Source: Patescibacteria group bacterium (lineage in GTDB: Bacteria; Patescibacteriota; Minisyncoccia; Minisyncoccales; RBG-13-36-15). Taken from it: a stretch of 64,000 nucleotides of DNA. This document shows positions 13,697 to 63,550 of the stretch, in pieces. A program made the translations under genes and the position numbers. Under the pieces are notes generated by a model. That model was not told the DNA's origin and did not search any database. It saw only the letters and a program-made list of their open reading frames with translations. Position 1 is the stretch's first letter, and each line of letters starts with the position of its first letter. The stretch lies in assembly GCA_018609195.1 (NCBI GenBank), contig JAHCSE010000001.1, positions 9,559-73,558 on the forward strand. Reading direction: 5' to 3'.

Positions 13697-14113
13697 TTAT
13701 CTTGGCAACACTTCAATTTTTTGTCCCTCTTTTATTTTGACTATTGCTTTTTTATATCCTTTTCTCCAGCCAGTTATTCTCCCTAATCTTCTCCTTTTTT
13801 GAGGAATCTTTATAATTTTAACATCTACGACCTTCACTCCATAAAGACCTTCAATTACCCTTTTAATCTCAATCTTATTAGATCTGGAATAAACTTTAAA
13901 AACGTATTGATTTTTTTTAGTCAAATCGGTAGCTTTCTCTGTGATATGGAGGGATTTTAATATTCGATAGGCATGAAGGGGAATTCCCTTTCTCTCAATT
14001 CTTTTTTCTTCTGGAGGAATTTCAGGTTCTCTCACTTCCTTCACCTTCTTTTCTGGAATTTCTCTTTTCTCTTTTTTAATTTTTTTCTTTCGAAAACGGT
14101 CTAAAATTCCCAT
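13697..14113 (-). CDS. rplW: 50S ribosomal protein L23 (N-terminal K/E-rich extension)
   Basis: L23 core (YVFKV...IKRVIEGLYGVKVVDVKII) preceded by about 45 extra residues. Confidence 0.88.
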   Translation of the reverse strand: MGILDRFRKKKIKKEKREIPEKKVKEVREPEIPPEEKRIERKGIPLHAYRILKSLHITEKATDLTKKNQYVFKVYSRSNKIEIKRVIEGLYGVKVVDVKIIKIPQKRRRLGRITGWRKGYKKAIVKIKEGQKIEVLPR

Positions 14114-14132
14114 ATTGTTATTACAGAGCGAA

Positions 14133-14271
14133 GTCGCTCGCCCTCCTCCAGCCTTTGGCTGGCGGTCGCCTTCGGCGACCTTCGGGCTCGCTCTTTAGAA
14201 ACCCTCGGTTTCTAACACTCGCTTCGCTTGCTGTTTTCCTACACGGGAGAACCTATGGTTCTCCCGACCCC
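14133..14271 (-). repeat. module A element, copy A1 (4 hairpins)
   Basis: Sense strand: GGGGTCGGGAGAAC-CATAG-GTTCTCCCGTGTAGGAAAACAG..TTAGAAACC-GAG-GGTTTCTAA..GTCGCC-GAA-GGCGAC..CCAGCC-AAA-GGCTGG..AGGAGGGCGAGCGAC. Confidence 0.85.
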
Positions 14272-14923
14272 TCTCCATTTTGGGCAGCAAATTGGGTTTC
14301 AGGAATGTCTCTTTTATTATATTTATTGATTCTTTAGGTATTAATAAATATTTGAAAGAAAGTAAGTCCAAGGGATTTAAATCTTTAGTCTGGGTAGTTT
14401 CTACTTTAGGAATATTTTTTGAGGCTCTAATGACAGCTTCCTCTTTTGTAGGAAGAGCAATCAAACAAGATGCTTTTTTTATTGGTAGATTATTTAAAAT
14501 CTCAACAATCAATTTTGTCTTTGGTTTATCTAATTTTAAAGAATCCAAAAGAACTATTAAATTTTCTTTAGCTTTCGTTGATAATACCATAAACAAAGCT
14601 TTTCTTCTCATTTTTTTAGGAATTTTTTGCTTAAAAACTCTCGTTTTTCTTGGTCCAAAAGTGATTCCTCCTCCTCGCCAGATTGGAGAACGAATAGAGC
14701 CTGCCCTCGCTCTCCCTGTTCCTTTTTGCCGCCAGGGTTTTCTTCCTCCACCCCGAACCTCAGCTCTAATTTTGGTATGAGCGATAGGAATCCTTCTATT
14801 TGCCATCTGGCTCACCACTACCTGATGTACTAAATCAGGATTGATTTTCACATCAAAAATTTCTTTTGGTAATGAAGTTTTCCCAACTTCTTTTCCTTCT
14901 TGATTGTAAGTCTTAATAAACAT
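14195..14923 (-). CDS. rplD: 50S ribosomal protein L4 (C-terminus reads into repeat A1)
   Basis: L4 motifs (RGGGRKPWRQKGTGRAR). There is no stop before the repeat, so the last ~25 codons (..ERGRENHRFSRVGKQQAKRVLETEGF) are encoded by element A1. Confidence 0.9.
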   Translation of the reverse strand: MFIKTYNQEGKEVGKTSLPKEIFDVKINPDLVHQVVVSQMANRRIPIAHTKIRAEVRGGGRKPWRQKGTGRARAGSIRSPIWRGGGITFGPRKTRVFKQKIPKKMRRKALFMVLSTKAKENLIVLLDSLKLDKPKTKLIVEILNNLPIKKASCLIALPTKEEAVIRASKNIPKVETTQTKDLNPLDLLSFKYLLIPKESINIIKETFLKPNLLPKMERGRENHRFSRVGKQQAKRVLETEGF

Positions 14924-14931
14924 AAGTTAAT

Positions 14932-15080
14932 AGCGAGGGTAAGTTTTTCAAAGAGCATCTCGGAGGCATCGCTGGCATGGTGTCCGAGCGCAACGAGGAA
15001 CAGCGACGCCGAGAGTTGAACAAAATTTTCCTCGCTGGGGAAAATTATTGTGTCTCTTTGAGGAAGCTTTGCCCGAACGC
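14932..15080 (-). repeat. module B element, copy B1 (149 nt)
   Basis: About 91% identical (13 mismatches by eye) to 20288..20436. Fills the whole rplC-rplD spacer. Imperfect terminal inverted repeats GCGTTCGGGCAAAGC / GCTTACCCTCGCT. Confidence 0.85.
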
Positions 15081-15674: not shown

Positions 15675-15873
15675 ACTTTCCTACGAATTACTCTATCGCT
15701 AAGCGACTCCCCGGAGGGTTGATATTTGCGAATATACGAATAATAATTTTCCAACAAAATACCGGGCACTAACCCGGTACTTTATTTTGTAGGTTAGTTA
15801 ATTTTATAATTTTATAAATTTTTGAAATAATTATTTCTTATCATAATGAGATAAAAAATATATTCGTAGGTAT

Positions 15874-15900
15874 CTACATTTTTATTTCGATATCACCTCC
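15874..15900 (-). repeat. orphan duplicate of the last 8 codons + stop of rpsJ
   Basis: ctacatttttatttcgatatcacctcc versus 16010..16036 ctacatttttatttcgatgtcaactcc (25/27 identical). Lies on the far side of element A2. Confidence 0.85.
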
Positions 15901-15990
15901 GTCGCTCCGCTCCTTAGAAACCCGCGGTTTCTAACGCTCGCTTCACTCGCTGTTTTCCTACACGGGGAGACACCCAGTCTCCCCGACCCC
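15901..15990 (-). repeat. module A element, copy A2 (short form, hairpins 1-2)
   Basis: Sense: GGGGTCGGGGAGAC-TGGGT-GTCTCCCCGTGTAGGAAAACAG..TTAGAAACC-GCG-GGTTTCTAA-GGAGCGGAGCGAC. Confidence 0.85.
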
Positions 15991-16009
15991 TTCTGTGCGG
16001 AGTTGCCAT

Positions 16010-16354
16010 CTACATTTTTATTTCGATGTCAACTCCGGCTGGTAAATTTAAATTCATCAGAGAATCGATCACTTTTGAGCTAGGATTTAAAATATCAATG
16101 AGTCTTTTGTGAATTCTCGTTTCAAACTGTTCTCGGGCATCTTTGTGGATAAAAGAAGATCTATTGACGGTGTATTTGTGAATTTCAGTTGGTAAGGGGA
16201 CAGGTCCCGAGACCTCCGCCCCATATCTTAAAACAGTCTCCACAATCTGCCGAGCACTGCTATCTATAACTTTGTGGTCATAGGCTTTAAGCCTTATCCT
16301 AATCCTTGGCTTAACTTCTTCCTCAATTTCTTTTGATTTTTCCTTAACTTTCAT
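16010..16354 (-). CDS. rpsJ: 30S ribosomal protein S10
   Basis: 114 aa; [15 protein letters not shown] and [14 protein letters not shown] motifs. N-terminal K/E extension. Confidence 0.94.
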
Positions 16355-16376
16355 CTTAAAAAGGACAAAAAATTTT

Positions 16377-16447
16377 TAGGTTTTAGCGTTTAGGATCTAG
16401 GTCTATTAAGTGATATTAAATTTAAAAAAACTCGACGCTAAAACCTA
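16377..16447 (-). terminator. long hairpin between tuf and rpsJ (attenuator/terminator candidate)
   Basis: 12-bp stem TAGGTTTTAGCG/CGCTAAAACCTA followed on the minus strand by AAAATTTTTT. Confidence 0.4.
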
Positions 16448-17847: not shown

Positions 17848-17925
17848 CTATTTCCTCTTTCCCTCAATGATCTCCTGAGTAATATTCTGAGGTACTTCTC
17901 CGTAATGGTCGAATTCCATCGTAAA
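17848..17925 (-). pseudogene. orphan second copy of the last 25 codons + stop of fusA
   Basis: Encodes [25 protein letters not shown] versus the fusA end [25 protein letters not shown] (22/25 aa identical, 54/78 nt identical). Confidence 0.85.
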
Positions 17926-18089
17926 GTCGCTCCGCTCCTCCAGTCTTCGGCTGGCGCTCCCCGCCAACATCTTCGAAGTTGTGGCGGGTCGCTTCGCTCC
18001 GCTCCCCAGACACCTCTCGGTTTCTGGCGGTCGTCGCTTCGCTCCTCCCTGTTTTCCTACACGGGAAAACACCCAGTTTTCCCGACCCC
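17926..18089 (-). repeat. module A element, copy A3
   Basis: Sense: GGGGTCGGGAAAAC-TGGGT-GTTTTCCCGTGTAGGAAAACAG..CCAGAAACC-GAGA-GGTGTCTGG..two further hairpins..GGAGCGGAGCGAC. Confidence 0.85.
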
Positions 18090-18120
18090 TTTCTGCTTCA
18101 CTATGGAGTTTTATCTAAAA

Positions 18121-20256
18121 TTATCTCCGTTTGCCTTCTATAATTTCTTGTGCGATGTTCCCTGGCACTTCACCGTAGTGATCAAACTCCATAGTAAACG
18201 TTCCTCGGCCTTCGGTCATCGATCGCAAAGCTGTGGCATAACCAAACATCTCAGCCAGAGGAACTTTAGCTGAAATTATTTTCAAATTTAACCTATCTTT
18301 TGTTTCTTCAATCTTCCCCCTCCTCGCTCCTAAATCCCCAATAGTATCTCCAAAAAATTCAGAAGGAATAATTACTTCTAATCTCATTATCGGTTCAAGT
18401 AAAATAGGTTTTGCTCTTTTGGCGGCCGTTTGCAAAGCAGCAGATGCAGCTATCTTGAAAGCAAATTCTGAGGAATCAACCTCATGATAGGAACCATCAT
18501 AAAGAGTCACTTCGATGTCAACCATAGGATAGCCTGCAGTTATCCCTTTTTCCATAGCTTCCTTCACTCCTTTTTTCACAGCGGGGATAAATTCTTTTGG
18601 GATGATTCCTCCTTTAATCTCGTCGATAAATTCAAATCCCTCTCCTCGTGTTTTGGGCCGAATTTTCAAGAAAACATGACCATATTGGCCTCTGCCGCCT
18701 GATTGTCTAATATATTTTCCTTCAGCTGAAGTTTCCTCTTTTATTGTTTCTTTATAGGCAACCTGAGGTCTTCCGGATGAAGCTTCCACCTTAAATTCTC
18801 TTCTCATTCGATCATTAATTATCTCTAAATGGAGCTCCCCCATTCCTGAGATAATAGTTTCTCCCGTTTCTAAATCACTTTTAATTTTAAAAGTGGGGTC
18901 TTCCTCAGCCAATCTTTTCAAAGCTAAACTCATTTTCTCTTGGTCGGCCTTCGTTTTCGGTTCAATTCGAATGGAAATGACAGGTTCTGGAAAGGTAATT
19001 TTTTCTAAGACAATGGGGTTATCAGGGTCACAAAGAGTATGACCAGTACTAGTTTTTTTTAATCCAACCGTAGCCCCAATATCTCCAGCGAAAAACTCTT
19101 GTACTTCCTCACGATCTGCCGCATGCATCCTTAAAATTCTCCCAATTCTCTCTTTCTCGCCCGTAGTTGCATTTAATACATAAGAACCTCTTTTTAAGCT
19201 ACCTGCATAAACTCGGAAATAATTTAAAGTTCCAACATAAGGATCAGCAGCAGATTTAAAAACCAAAGCGGAAAATGATTCTGAATCTAAAACTTTTCTT
19301 TCAATTTCCTGACCATTTCGAGGATCAACTCCTCTCACCGGAGGTAAATCCAAGGGGCTAGGCAAAAAATTCACAATTCCATCTAAGAGAGGCTGAATTC
19401 CTTTATTTCTCAAAGCTGATCCACAAAATACCGGGATGAGTTTGTAGGAAATTGTGGCTTTTCTCAATACTTCTCTCAATTCATTGATTGAAATTTCCTT
19501 TTTGGCTAAGTATTTCTCTAAAAGTTTCTCATCTTCAGCTGCAATTTTCTCCACTAATTTTTCTCGCCACTCTTTAGCGATCTTGCGCAAATTTTCAGGT
19601 ATCTCTTCTTCAACAACATTCTGGCCAAAGTCACCTTCAAATTTTAAGGCTCGCATTGTAAAGAGATCAATCACTCCTTCAAAATTTTCCTCGCTACCAA
19701 TTGGTAATTGAAGAACCACCGCCTGGGGAGATAATTTTTCCCAAATTGATTGCAAGCTCTTTTCAAAAGAAGCTCCTGTCCTATCCATTTTATTGATAAA
19801 GCAAATTCTGGGAACAGAAAATCTATCTGCTTGATGCCATACCGTCTCAGATTGAGGTTCTACTCCTGCTACTCCATCGAAAATCACTACCGCCCCATCC
19901 AAAACTCGCAAAGATCTTTGTACTTCCGCTGTAAAATCAATATGGCCAGGAGTATCAATAATGTTTATTCGATACTCATCTTTTTTGCTTTTTTCTTTGG
20001 ATTGACCGGGGGCGGTGTGTGGGTGATAGGTGGATGGAGTCCAAAAACAAGTAGTGGCTGCAGCTGTAATAGTAATTCCCCTTTCTTTTTCTTGAATCAT
20101 CCAATCCATTATTGCCTCCCCTTCATGAACTTCTCCAATTTTATGAGAAATTCCAGTATAGAAAAGCACCCGCTCAGTAACGGTTGTTTTCCCAGCATCG
20201 ATATGAGCAATAATACCAATATTGCGAGTTCGTTCTATTGGATACAAACGAGGCAT
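18121..20256 (-). CDS. fusA: elongation factor G
   Basis: [17 protein letters not shown] and NKMD motifs; 711 aa. Confidence 0.97.
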
Positions 20257-20287
20257 AATTTGTAGAAGCGGATTTACGCGGATCTAA

Positions 20288-20436
20288 AGCGAGGGTAAGC
20301 TTCTCAAAGAGCATCTCGGAGGCGTCGCTGGCAAGGTGTCCGAGTAAAGCGAGGAACAGCGACGCCGAGAGTTGAACAAAATTTTCCTCGCTGGGAAAAA
20401 TTATTGTGTCTCTTTGAGGGGGCTTTGCCCGAGCGA
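20288..20436 (-). repeat. module B element, copy B2 (149 nt)
   Basis: See B1. Contains a 10-bp stem GGCGTCGCTG/CAGCGACGCC and a long-range stem CTCAAAGAG/CTCTTTGAG. Confidence 0.85.
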
Positions 20437-20452
20437 ATCACCAAGCCAAATG

Positions 20453-20603
20453 GTCGCTCGCCCTCCTCCAGCGCAGAGCGCTGGCGGACGCCTTTGGCGT
20501 CCTTCGGGCTCACTCCCCAGACACCTCTCGGTTTCTGGCGCTCCTTCGCTTTCGCTCAGTCACTGTTTTCCTATACGGGGAAACACCCAGTTTCCCCGAC
20601 CCC
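20453..20603 (-). repeat. module A element, copy A4
   Basis: Sense: GGGGTCGGGGAAAC-TGGGT-GTTTCCCCGTATAGGAAAACAG..CCAGAAACC-GAGA-GGTGTCTGG..GACGCC-AAA-GGCGTC..CCAGCGC-TCT-GCGCTGG..AGGAGGGCGAGCGAC. Confidence 0.85.
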
Positions 20604-20609
20604 TTTCTG

Positions 20610-20635
20610 CCACTTTGCGTTACCACGCAAAGTGG
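20610..20635 (-). promoter_or_regulatory. 10-bp hairpin enclosing the rpsG stop codon
   Basis: CCACTTTGCG-TGGTAA-CGCAAAGTGG on the sense strand. The stop codon is in the loop, and the 3' arm abuts element A4. Confidence 0.7.
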
Positions 20636-35679: not shown

Positions 35680-35826
35680 AAAAATGTGTCCTCCTCCGTT
35701 AAAACTTTGGAGGACATGGATGGCATTCTGACTTTCACAGTTACGGCATAGTCCCGGATTTCCTGCCCGCATCGCTATACGAAGTATTGCAGGCGGGTCA
35801 CCGGAGTTCCCCATCCGTTTTCAAAG
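35680..35826 (-). promoter_or_regulatory. cobalamin riboswitch with terminator expression platform
   Basis: Sense strand: GGATGGGGAACTCCGGTGA...GGAAATCCGGGACTATGCCGTAACTGTGAAAGTCAGAATGCCATCC (B12-box-like AGTCAGAATGCC; P1 stem GGATGG/CCATCC). This is followed by the hairpin TGTCCTCC...GGAGGACA and T7. Confidence 0.78.
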
Positions 35827-35837
35827 TCCGTTAATAA

Positions 35838-63346: not shown

Positions 63347-63390
63347 TCTCTTTTATTGTATTGGAATTTTAATTCCGATACAACACAGGA

Positions 63391-63512
63391 GGGGTCGGGA
63401 GGATTGGGTATCCTCCCGTATAGGAAAACAGGCTTTCAGGTGAGCGAAGCGAAGACTGAAAACGTTAGAAACCGTGGGTGTCTAAAGAACATGGTGCCGA
63501 GCGTTAGCGAGG
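63391..63512 (+). repeat. module A element, copy A6 (opposite orientation)
   Basis: Plus strand: GGGGTCGGGAGGAT-TGGGT-ATCCTCCCGTATAGGAAAACAG..GAGCGAAGCGAAG..TTAGAAACC-GTG-GGTGTCTAA.. Confidence 0.8.
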
Positions 63513-63550
63513 TCTATGTTCTTATACCGCATTTTATTCACAAACAAAAA

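Follow-up and report, generated by a model that had tools for sequence, protein, structure and literature searches.

A ribosomal protein L4 reading frame that runs into a structured repeat in a Patescibacteria genome, and a possible guide-directed origin of the repeat family

What becomes of an essential gene when a repeat lies directly against its end? The question is raised by rplD, the gene for ribosomal protein L4 (uL4), in a stretch of 64,000 nucleotides (nt) of contig JAHCSE010000001.1 from a Patescibacteria group bacterium; this whole stretch is referred to below as the window. The window is AT-rich (~37% GC) with nearly every gene on the minus strand, and by Pfam its str/S10 genes run in the usual order, S12, S7, EF-G, EF-Tu, S10, L3, L4, L23, L2 and more ribosomal proteins. 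The junction between L4 and L23 is occupied by A1, a copy of a repeat family that we call E, and a sequence-only reading had claimed that L4 has no stop ahead of A1, gains a tail of about 25 residues encoded by the repeat, and halts at a TAA inside one of its hairpins (H2). The fusion of L4 to the repeat is real and is confirmed here. The tail itself is very probably an unselected by-product of an insertion element, not a selected extension of the protein.

The end of the L4 gene

The rplD open reading frame (ORF; 14923..14195, minus strand) is indeed open into the repeat, and encodes 242 amino acids (aa) with the C-terminus ...IIKETFLKPNLLPKMERGRENHRFSRVGKQQAKRVLETEGF followed by a stop. It is identified as uL4 by a Ribosomal_L4 match (PF00573, residues 17-205 of 242, E-value 3e-65) and by its place in the S10 operon, with L3 and L23 on either side. 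The stop had also been placed correctly: it is a TAA (14195-14197) that ends the hairpin TTAGAAACC-GAG-GGTTTCTAA (14195-14215). The gene divides into three parts:

14297..14923, minus strand: native part of rplD (uL4), codons 1-209, ending ...KETFLK (from the ORF, Pfam and homolog ends)
14198..14296, minus strand: element-encoded L4 extension, 33 codons, PNLLPKMERGRENHRFSRVGKQQAKRVLETEGF; this tail (PNLLPKMERG...) occurs in none of the 120 best L4 homologs
14195..14197, minus strand: L4 stop TAA, the final 3 nt of the 3' arm of hairpin P3 (part M2 of the element), from the sequence

The boundary between the first two parts was set by comparison with the 120 best homologs, which belong to Candidatus Nealsonbacteria and other Patescibacteria metagenome-assembled genomes (MAGs) at identities of up to 81%, with no identical database entry. 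L4 is 209 aa long in 46 of them and 208-217 aa in most others, and nearly all end in ...KETFLK-stop or a few residues off it. Because the homologs end at ETFLK-stop, the ancestral C-terminus is K209 (14297-14299), and since the stop lies at 14195-14197 the extension is 33 aa. The earlier claim was therefore right about the repeat origin of the tail and wrong about its length, since the conserved core alone accounts for the ~25-26 residues. The closest relative with a contig, at locus L041 (L-numbers denote fetched loci, P-numbers L4 homologs), has an L4 that is 78% identical and lacks the tail; it ends TFLKND-stop and is followed by an 87-nt AT-rich spacer with no repeat. Furthermore, inspection of all frames of the junction showed that no single-base error could recreate ETFLK-stop, as translation in the +1 frame ends at a TAG in the loop of the first hairpin, and in the remaining frame at a TGA within ttcCTGAaa that would cut the conserved ETFLK short.

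Copy A1 is complete, lies in register on both sides with 59 other members of a subfamily that we call type 1, and directly adjoins the L23 gene. Its parts are:

14114..14296, minus strand: element copy A1, type-1 subfamily, full extent (boundaries from comparison with 59 type-1 copies; covariance model, 96.9 bits; RNA fold of the 187-nt L4 copy, z = -5.6)
14273..14296, minus strand: left module, apparently duplicated, CCCAATTTGCTG + CCCAAAATGGAG, encoding PNLLPKME
14231..14272, minus strand: M1, consisting of AGGGGTC, hairpin P1 (CGGGAGAACC/GGTTCTCCCG) and GTGTAGGAAAACAG (invariant flanks; compensatory changes in P1)
14216..14230, minus strand: variable hairpin P2 region with a GCGAAGC mini-hairpin (family alignment)
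14195..14215, minus strand: M2, hairpin P3, TTAGAAACC-GAG-GGTTTCTAA (compensatory UA to CG changes)
14133..14194, minus strand: M3, consisting of GAGCGAG-CCC, two hairpins (GAA/AAA loops) and GGG-CGAGCGAC (conserved 3' core end GAGCGAC)
14114..14132, minus strand: right module TTCGCTCTGTAATAACAAT, adjoining the L23 ATG (homologous modules at unrelated loci)
13697..14113, minus strand: rplW (uL23), with its ATG directly after A1 (ORF and Pfam)

On the left, the element is fused to the last L4 sense codon (junction AAA/CCCA), and the TAA that usually precedes a type-1 left module is missing. The left module, for which the type-1 consensus is cATCCCAcATCGGAG, appears to have been duplicated in tandem (CCCAATTTGCTG/CCCAAAATGGAG). 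On the right, the sequence-only reading had taken TTCGCTCTGTAA (14121-14132) for a displaced L4 end. This is refuted, as these are the first 12 nt of the right module TTCGCTCTGTAATAACAAT, which has homologs in TTCGCCCTGTATTACCACT (L119), TTCACTTGGTATTACCACT (L153) and TTCACTTTGTAAGACCGCT (L049) and a consensus of TAACTTTGTATTACCACT. There are 69 other copies with a type-1 left end, and in the 58 that could be delimited on the right GAGCGAC is followed by a module of 18-19 nt. At dozens of unrelated loci no nucleotide separates this module from the ATG with which the next gene begins, or from tRNA position +1; judged by their first codons, the genes concerned include those for L14, S14, S12, L27, S3, L32, S20, GroEL, DnaK, NusA, NusG, EF-G and others. 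Since the element-free junctions of the window carry no such motif, the right module belongs to the element, so that A1 runs from 14114 to 14296 and occupies the L4-L23 spacer in full.

L4 must now carry the predicted tail, since nothing downstream could restore the native end, and its 33 residues show no sign of selection. Ribosomes translating L4 would read through the left module, P1 and P2 and halt at the conserved TAA of the P3 3' arm; on the predicted structure they must unwind P1-P3. TAG or TAA occurs in all three frames of A1, 17, 31 and 75 nt from the start of M1.

Element-lengthened L4 proteins are found in only two of the 120 homologs (P0096 and P0032). In a Paceibacterales MAG (L039, JBHIEB010000020), ...KETFLK is fused to CCCAGTGAGGAA-GGGGGTCGGGG... 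through the identical AAA/CCCA junction. There the right module is followed by a 33-nt copy of the L4 end with its TAA, agtgtaaaggtaattaaagagacttttttaaaaTAA, and then by the L23 ATG; the displaced end reads SVKVIKETFLK-stop, compared with SIKIIKETFLK upstream. Unlike L039, the window contains no displaced L4 end. The L039 tail is 50 aa long and unlike that of the window, because P1 is 1 nt longer in L039 and shifts the frame. At a further locus, L040, the TAA is intact and probably out of frame through an indel in a run of T. A1 shares 77-80% identity with type-1 copies found in other genomes, at loci unrelated to L4, and only 58% with the L4 copy of L039, which suggests that the L4-L23 junction has probably been occupied more than once.

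Element family E, its spare gene ends and antisense guides

E is a non-coding, GC-rich and highly structured repeat of about 100-190 nt found at the termini of highly expressed genes; it is widespread in Patescibacteria and, by the titles of the genome records, apparently confined to them. Our sample comprises 165 copies, from the window and 160 fetched loci. A scan with an exact pattern gave 38 loci in ~30 species-representative genomes, none titled as non-Patescibacteria and several only as 'bacterium', and a metagenome scan gave at least 120 loci; none was found in 2.9 million viral contigs. By covariance model the window has exactly five copies (E-values 1e-22 to 1e-25), at L4/L23, S10/L3, EF-G/tuf, S7/EF-G and, on the opposite strand, at 63.4 kb, so that four lie within 6.5 kb of the str/S10 operon. 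Rfam 15 gave no relevant match between 13.9 and 21 kb, either at the gathering threshold or at E <= 10. The family is apparently undescribed; no account of E-like elements, or of an architecture of guide plus rescue copy, was found in the accessible literature, the coverage of which is incomplete and makes this weak evidence of novelty.

The core of E has the form AGGGGUC-P1-GUGUAGGAAAACAG-P2-P3-...GAGCGAC or, in full, (linker) AGGGGUC, P1, GU(G/A)UAGGAAAACAG, a variable P2, P3 (UUAGAAACC..GGUUUCUAA), AAGAGCG, optional hairpins and GAGCGAC. Among 35 copies, compensatory changes affect seven pairs of P1 and P3 together: five of the nine pairs of P1, which has invariant flanks, and UA to CG exchanges in P3 in 8-9 copies. 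The hairpin loops are often C-GAA-G, and the GCGAAGC motif recurs. In the type-1 subfamily (70 of the 165 copies) the modules at the left (cATCCCAcATCGGAG) and right are fixed, a stop codon usually stands directly ahead of the left one, and a guide cannot be recognised; one such copy (L039) shows that a target duplication can flank this type as well. Its alignment contains an extra stem, P4, with two inner hairpins, and RNAalifold gives a possible closing helix GGGGUC:GAC that is short and invariant; no complementarity between left and right modules was seen by eye.

A second arrangement is seen in ~45 copies. Here a spare gene or tRNA end (U) is followed by an 8-25 nt guide that is antisense to the start of U, then by the core, and finally, directly after GAGCGAC, by a second gene end (D). 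Three of the window copies are of this guide type, and the fifth copy is listed with them:

15872..16037, minus strand: S10-end guide-type copy (U 16008-16037, guide 15998-16007, core 15901-15997, D 15872-15900), with (G)VDIEIKM-stop in both U and D
17848..18198, minus strand: EF-G-end guide-type copy (U 18121-18198, guide 18097-18111, core 17926-18096, D 17848-17925), U and D each with 25 codons and a stop and differing mostly at synonymous positions
20438..20635, minus strand: S7-end guide-type copy (U 20620-20635, guide 20610-20619, core 20453-20609, D 20438-20452), with duplicated ends HLAW-stop versus HFAW-stop
63358..63521, plus strand: fifth E copy, upstream of nth and antisense to the genes on either side, with the hairpin GTATTGGAATT/AATTCCGATAC ahead of it (covariance model)

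The U/D duplications measure 9-112 nt and involve the ends of EF-G, S10, S7 and tRNAs and, judged by C-terminal peptides at loci outside the window, of genes that resemble those for GAPDH (~5 loci), L33, L18 and GyrB, along with several ORFs of no assigned name. In many tRNAs the duplicated part begins at the T loop and takes in the 3' end and the terminator, and ARAGORN places U within an intact tRNA and D in a fragment only. Separated from the 5' side of P1 by 5-7 nt, the guide pairs with the first bases of U. In 33 unique guide:U helices, with a median length of 14 bp, we counted 449 Watson-Crick pairs, 22 G:T, 5 A:C and 17 others. Of 21 informative cases, 14 show a closer match of the guide to U than to D and the other 7 an equal one; the match to U is never the poorer (15 mismatches against U versus 53 against D over 309 nt). 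The guide also covaries with U between orthologous insertions (e.g. L083 versus L126).

U and D differ at 143 nt and 50 aa, where 97 aa differences would be expected under random substitution, and D mostly keeps its stop codon. This synonymous bias, together with the D stops, argues that U and D diverged as coding sequences in different lineages. The S10 copy indicates which of the two is resident, as its D runs into the native spacer motif cctacgaat, and L039 and L041, whose S10 sites are empty, have this motif after S10 too; the EF-G end of L039 is likewise empty. Since D is continuous with the native spacer and empty sites exist, D is the resident end and U-guide-core would be the insert. 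The same insertion point recurs at EF-G in three genomes, at S10 in two and at the GAPDH-like end in about five. The 5' ends of antisense genes are also targeted (L003, L033 and probably the 63.4-kb copy), with U holding the start codon and promoter region.

Several tRNA loci have unusual arrangements. At a single tRNA-Lys in L016 (1850-2300) the order is tRNA, terminator, guide, element, 3' fragment, terminator, degenerate element and 3' fragment with the first terminator, a nested or tandem array. Displaced tRNA fragments in L008, L012, L014, L067 and L143 have a small GC hairpin, (y)AGCGAAGCG, in the T loop exactly between TTC and GA, the junction reading GAGCGAC-GGTTC-hairpin-GAnTCC... At L017 (2683-2820), L037 (2148-2302) and L028 (991-1141) there is no duplication and the element ends at position +1 of the downstream tRNA, the RNase P cleavage site; in L017 and L037 it lies between two tRNA-Met genes.

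Competing explanations and a proposed mode of mobility

E seems to behave as a site-specific homing element, and from the arrangement of its parts we infer a mobile unit U-guide-core that would insert 5' of the guide-complementary sequence in an empty allele (homing) and leave the gene intact. The guide would base-pair within a single-stranded intermediate, of DNA or RNA, on which an enzyme supplied in trans would act, and retargeting would need only complementarity between the guide and some stretch of the upstream gene. The direct repeats U and D would permit precise loss, which fits the mostly young-looking D copies. The antisense targets argue against an obligatory host read-through transcript and slightly favour a mechanism at the DNA level. 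In a more radical reading, to which we give somewhat less than even odds, E would be a protein-less, nucleic-acid-guided homing element with a structured core of ~100 nt, a self-encoded guide of 8-25 nt and a recoded rescue copy of the gene end; it could be retargeted through its guide, and catalysis might come from the RNA or single-stranded DNA itself or from a housekeeping enzyme.

A number of observations weigh against the homing proposal. Pfam found no transposase, reverse transcriptase or integrase in 59 window ORFs (8.5-63.3 kb), and clustering of ORFs in the 8-kb flanks of 38 loci gave EF-G as the only recurrent protein beside the copies. P1 has no wobble bias (10 G:T versus 7 A:C) and so does not tell a DNA from an RNA intermediate. 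The loci were retrieved by an exact M1 pattern, which makes the sample a biased one, and the left and right modules of type 1 are unexplained by the guide model. For A1 itself, a search for a guide or D copy returned only noise, and as it has neither, its mode of arrival has to be argued from family membership and from L039. Either D and its stop were deleted from A1 later, or the element replaced the segment from TAA through spacer outright.

Other established mechanisms were considered and rejected or disfavoured. A long target-site duplication followed by neutral decay of D is ruled out by the synonymous bias and the intact D stops, and a Campbell-type single crossover of a circle predicts a guide matching the start of D, the opposite of what is seen. 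An RNA-guided nuclease with homology-directed repair is disfavoured because the guide matches the element's own U. Diversity-generating retroelements (VR/TR at a gene 3' end) do not fit, as U and D differ with no specificity for adenine and E targets ribosomal proteins and tRNAs. E is no classical miniature inverted-repeat transposable element, having no terminal inverted repeats, a left guide that complements the target and not the right end, and duplications that are 9-112 nt long and divergent in sequence. No Rfam covariance model matched it to a group I or II intron or to a known self-cleaving ribozyme. Specificity for a replication strand was also set aside, since the 63.4-kb copy is inverted in a window with uniform GC skew.

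The view of the L4 tail as a by-product rests on the rarity of read-through, which was seen for an upstream ORF (at least 70 codons) in only ~10 of the 165 copies (three L4 genes, S17-like and L15-like C-termini and a few others). If the tail were instead a functional C-terminal extension of uL4 kept by selection, a domesticated repeat peptide as proposed for Rickettsia palindromic elements (RPEs), its basic character would suit a protein that binds rRNA, and two other L4 genes (P0032 and P0096) also read into the element. We consider this very unlikely, given that 118 of 120 close homologs have no such tail, that the L039 tail has a different sequence through its 1-nt frame shift in P1, that L040 looks like a T-run frameshift over an intact TAA, that the L4 elements of A1 and L039 are not each other's closest relatives, and that nucleotide conservation tracks hairpins, not codons. 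Even less credence can be given to a missing stop produced by sequencing or assembly. The window is probably a metagenome assembly, in which repeats can cause chimeric joins, and L040 does contain a likely homopolymer frameshift; however, a single-base change does not bring back ETFLK-stop, the AAA/CCCA junction occurs independently in L039, and the element is whole and aligned with other type-1 copies at both ends.

The remaining alternatives concern the family as a whole. Were E removed or processed in RNA like an intron or ribozyme, mature L4 mRNA would be free of the tail. This would accord with the positions of the U/... and GAGCGAC/D junctions, both 5' of the guide-complementary stretch in guide-type copies, with the retention of ORF and stop in D copies, with copies that end at tRNA +1, an RNase P site, and with the possible GGGGUC:GAC helix, which sets the junction opposite a purine-rich bulge. 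It is nevertheless improbable, because the L4 copy has no guide or D, so that excision would leave a non-stop mRNA, because no known ribozyme or intron model matches, and because U is complete and constrained, which would be needless if it were spliced out. A host cis-acting RNA element (an mRNA stabiliser, processing site or translation insulator) spread by ordinary recombination seems to us only slightly less unlikely. The conserved structure with covariation, the location in highly expressed operons with the type-1 right module 0 nt from an ATG or tRNA +1 in dozens of cases, and the lack of an associated enzyme in our searches all speak for it, but it leaves unexplained the spare gene ends and covarying antisense guides, the same insertion point in distant orthologs, the empty sites in close relatives and the nested arrays of L016. 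Movement through RNA is doubtful, yet deserves more weight than either: a read-through transcript would be cut at a guide-defined 5' site, reverse-transcribed and integrated, in the manner of R2 (PMC3774820). The targets are abundant RNAs (tRNAs and the mRNAs of ribosomal proteins, EF-G and GAPDH), U in the tRNA cases reaches the end of the terminator and hence of the transcript, and G:U wobbles are in excess in guide:U helices. On the other hand, the antisense copies (L003, L033 and window 63.4 kb) receive no sense RNA from host read-through, and no reverse transcriptase was seen nearby. The hairpins are moreover rich in C-GAA-G and GCGAAGC, motifs typical of very stable DNA mini-hairpins.

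Known systems, other repeats of the window and wider meaning

The sequence-only reading had likened the L4 tail to RPEs, which lie in frame inside ORFs that continue on the far side. The likeness holds insofar as a short structured repeat in a reduced, AT-rich genome has entered the ORF of an essential protein. It fails for the in-frame internal insertion, as this is a terminal fusion: the host frame is not resumed, L4 ends at a TAA in the element and L23 follows with its own ATG, and A1, with stops in all three frames, is not open over its full length. In addition, read-through is rare in E, the phylum differs, and a guide with a spare gene end is not known for RPEs.

Duplicated gene ends have other precedents. 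Integrative and conjugative or mobilisable elements and their cis-mobilisable relatives (ICE/IME/CIME), and other integrase islands, integrate at the 3' ends of tRNA, tmRNA and ribosomal-protein genes and restore them, just as U completes EF-G, S10, S7 and tRNAs while D is a fragment. Such islands, however, are kilobases long with one fixed site per integrase, whereas E copies measure 100-350 nt, have no ORFs or integrase, and place one core at more than 15 targets with matching guides. Free-standing homing-endonuclease insertions, such as that in Allomyces macrogynus atp6, bring a foreign C-terminal segment and leave the resident end downstream. The order of gene body, foreign functional 3' end, selfish element and displaced native end is the same in E, with mainly synonymous differences; those elements encode an endonuclease, in contrast to E, which is non-coding and has an antisense guide instead. 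The REP/BIME, BOX and ERIC families are, like E, modular, GC-rich, hairpin-forming intergenic repeats, often lying just after operon genes, but have no target-specific guide or duplicated gene ends.

The closest known logic appears to be the guide-directed single-strand transposition of IS200/IS605. IS608 picks its target by pairing with a 4-nt guide beside a subterminal hairpin, and has been engineered to 12/17-nt extended pairing (PMC5934647); IS200/IS605 and PATE derivatives are also described (PMC5934647, PMC3201880). E may be analogous to these in a target selected by base pairing and in a guide just 5' of a subterminal hairpin, and resembles them in hairpin-rich ends and in apparently oriented, site-specific insertion; IS200/IS605 and PATE include non-autonomous copies mobilised in trans. 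Its 8-25 nt guides recall the engineered extended guides, whereas geometry and length differ from natural IS608, which uses 4 nt and inserts 3' of the recognised sequence without duplication. E sits 5' of a recognised sequence that occurs twice (U and D, 9-112 nt) and carries its own copy of the target with the rest of the gene end. TnpA (Y1 HUH) was found neither in the Pfam-scanned window ORFs nor as a recurrent protein in the 8-kb flanks of the 38 loci. At the RNA level R2 may be the nearest precedent, as cleavage by its 5' HDV-like ribozyme falls inside the 28S sequence upstream and leaves an RNA with target sequence at its start (PMC3774820). The mobile RNA of E would similarly begin with host target, a helix between host and element would set the 5' cut, and the carried sequence would aid integration at the same site. 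Unlike R2, E has no HDV-like fold by Rfam, no ORF for a reverse transcriptase or endonuclease and a bacterial host, and its helix is separated by a whole spare gene end.

Other repeats and motifs were noted in the ribosomal operons. Family 'B' is a 148-nt repeat with two copies, 92% identical, at window 14932-15079 and 20288-20435 (minus strand), with imperfect terminal inverted repeats (GGGCAAAGC..CTCAAAGAG / CTCTTTGA..CTTACCCTCGC); one fills the L3-L4 spacer, and the other lies upstream of fusA, next after the displaced end of S7. A hairpin in the S10-L3 spacer, AAGTACCGGGTTAGTGCCCGGTATTTT (window 15756-15782, minus strand; L039 2245-2270; L041 1484-1510), shows compensatory changes and looks like a terminator or attenuator ahead of L3. 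Clusters of TACGAAT/ATTCGTA in ribosomal-operon spacers of three genomes (window 15857-15870 and 15721-15741, minus strand; L039 2130-2165 and 395-465; L041 1328-1395 and 1515-1550) may be a protein-binding or regulatory repeat. The sequence ATCCGCGTAAATCCGCTTCTACAAA lies immediately upstream of the fusA ATG (window 20259-20283, minus strand) and inside the L3-L4 spacer of L041 (~2232-2256), and the tuf-S10 spacer (16374-16447, minus strand) holds a long-range inverted repeat, TAGGTTTTAGCG / CGCTAAAACCTA, a possible leader structure of the S10 operon. The uL23 protein has a Lys/Glu-rich N-terminal extension of ~50 residues ahead of its Pfam domain (13964-14113, minus strand), of similar length in L039 and L041.

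Elsewhere in the window, an AdoCbl-II riboswitch (35713-35827, minus strand; Rfam, 39 bits) lies in a region with DUF4430, DUF6580, a corrinoid adenosyltransferase and a B12-dependent ribonucleotide reductase (30.7-35.3 kb). The sequence AAAAACCGCCTTCTTGGCGATT occurs five times (26296, 26720, 27726, 28935 and 57455, plus strand), resembles an intrinsic terminator when read on the minus strand and is common to unrelated genes. Between 51.9 and 57.7 kb, diverged duplicated stretches (families D1, D4 and D9, 70-92% identical) overlap two 285-aa ORFs with no Pfam match and are adjoined by a DsbD-like ORF. Genes of thiol redox chemistry are unusually many (DsbD_TM four times, AhpC/TSA or redoxin four times, VKOR, DsbA and Ni-SOD).

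On these results, a reduced genome can apparently live with a predicted junk tail of 33 residues that selfish DNA adds to one of its essential ribosomal proteins. Patescibacteria genomes are very small, and yet their most conserved operons are peppered with E. 'Long' annotated ribosomal proteins in Patescibacteria MAGs can reflect repeat biology, not assembly, and both gene calling and the extraction of phylogenomic markers are liable to be misled by gene ends present in two synonymously diverged copies. If the protein-less homing reading is true, E would be a natural analogue of 'home-and-rescue' gene drives. If the guide does direct insertion, E would constitute a compact, naturally programmable insertion system that preserves gene ends, and would show how selfish DNA manages to reside within essential genes; a new architecture would then join IS200/IS605, group II introns and bridge or omega RNAs in relying on base pairing, and its interest for genome engineering would be obvious.

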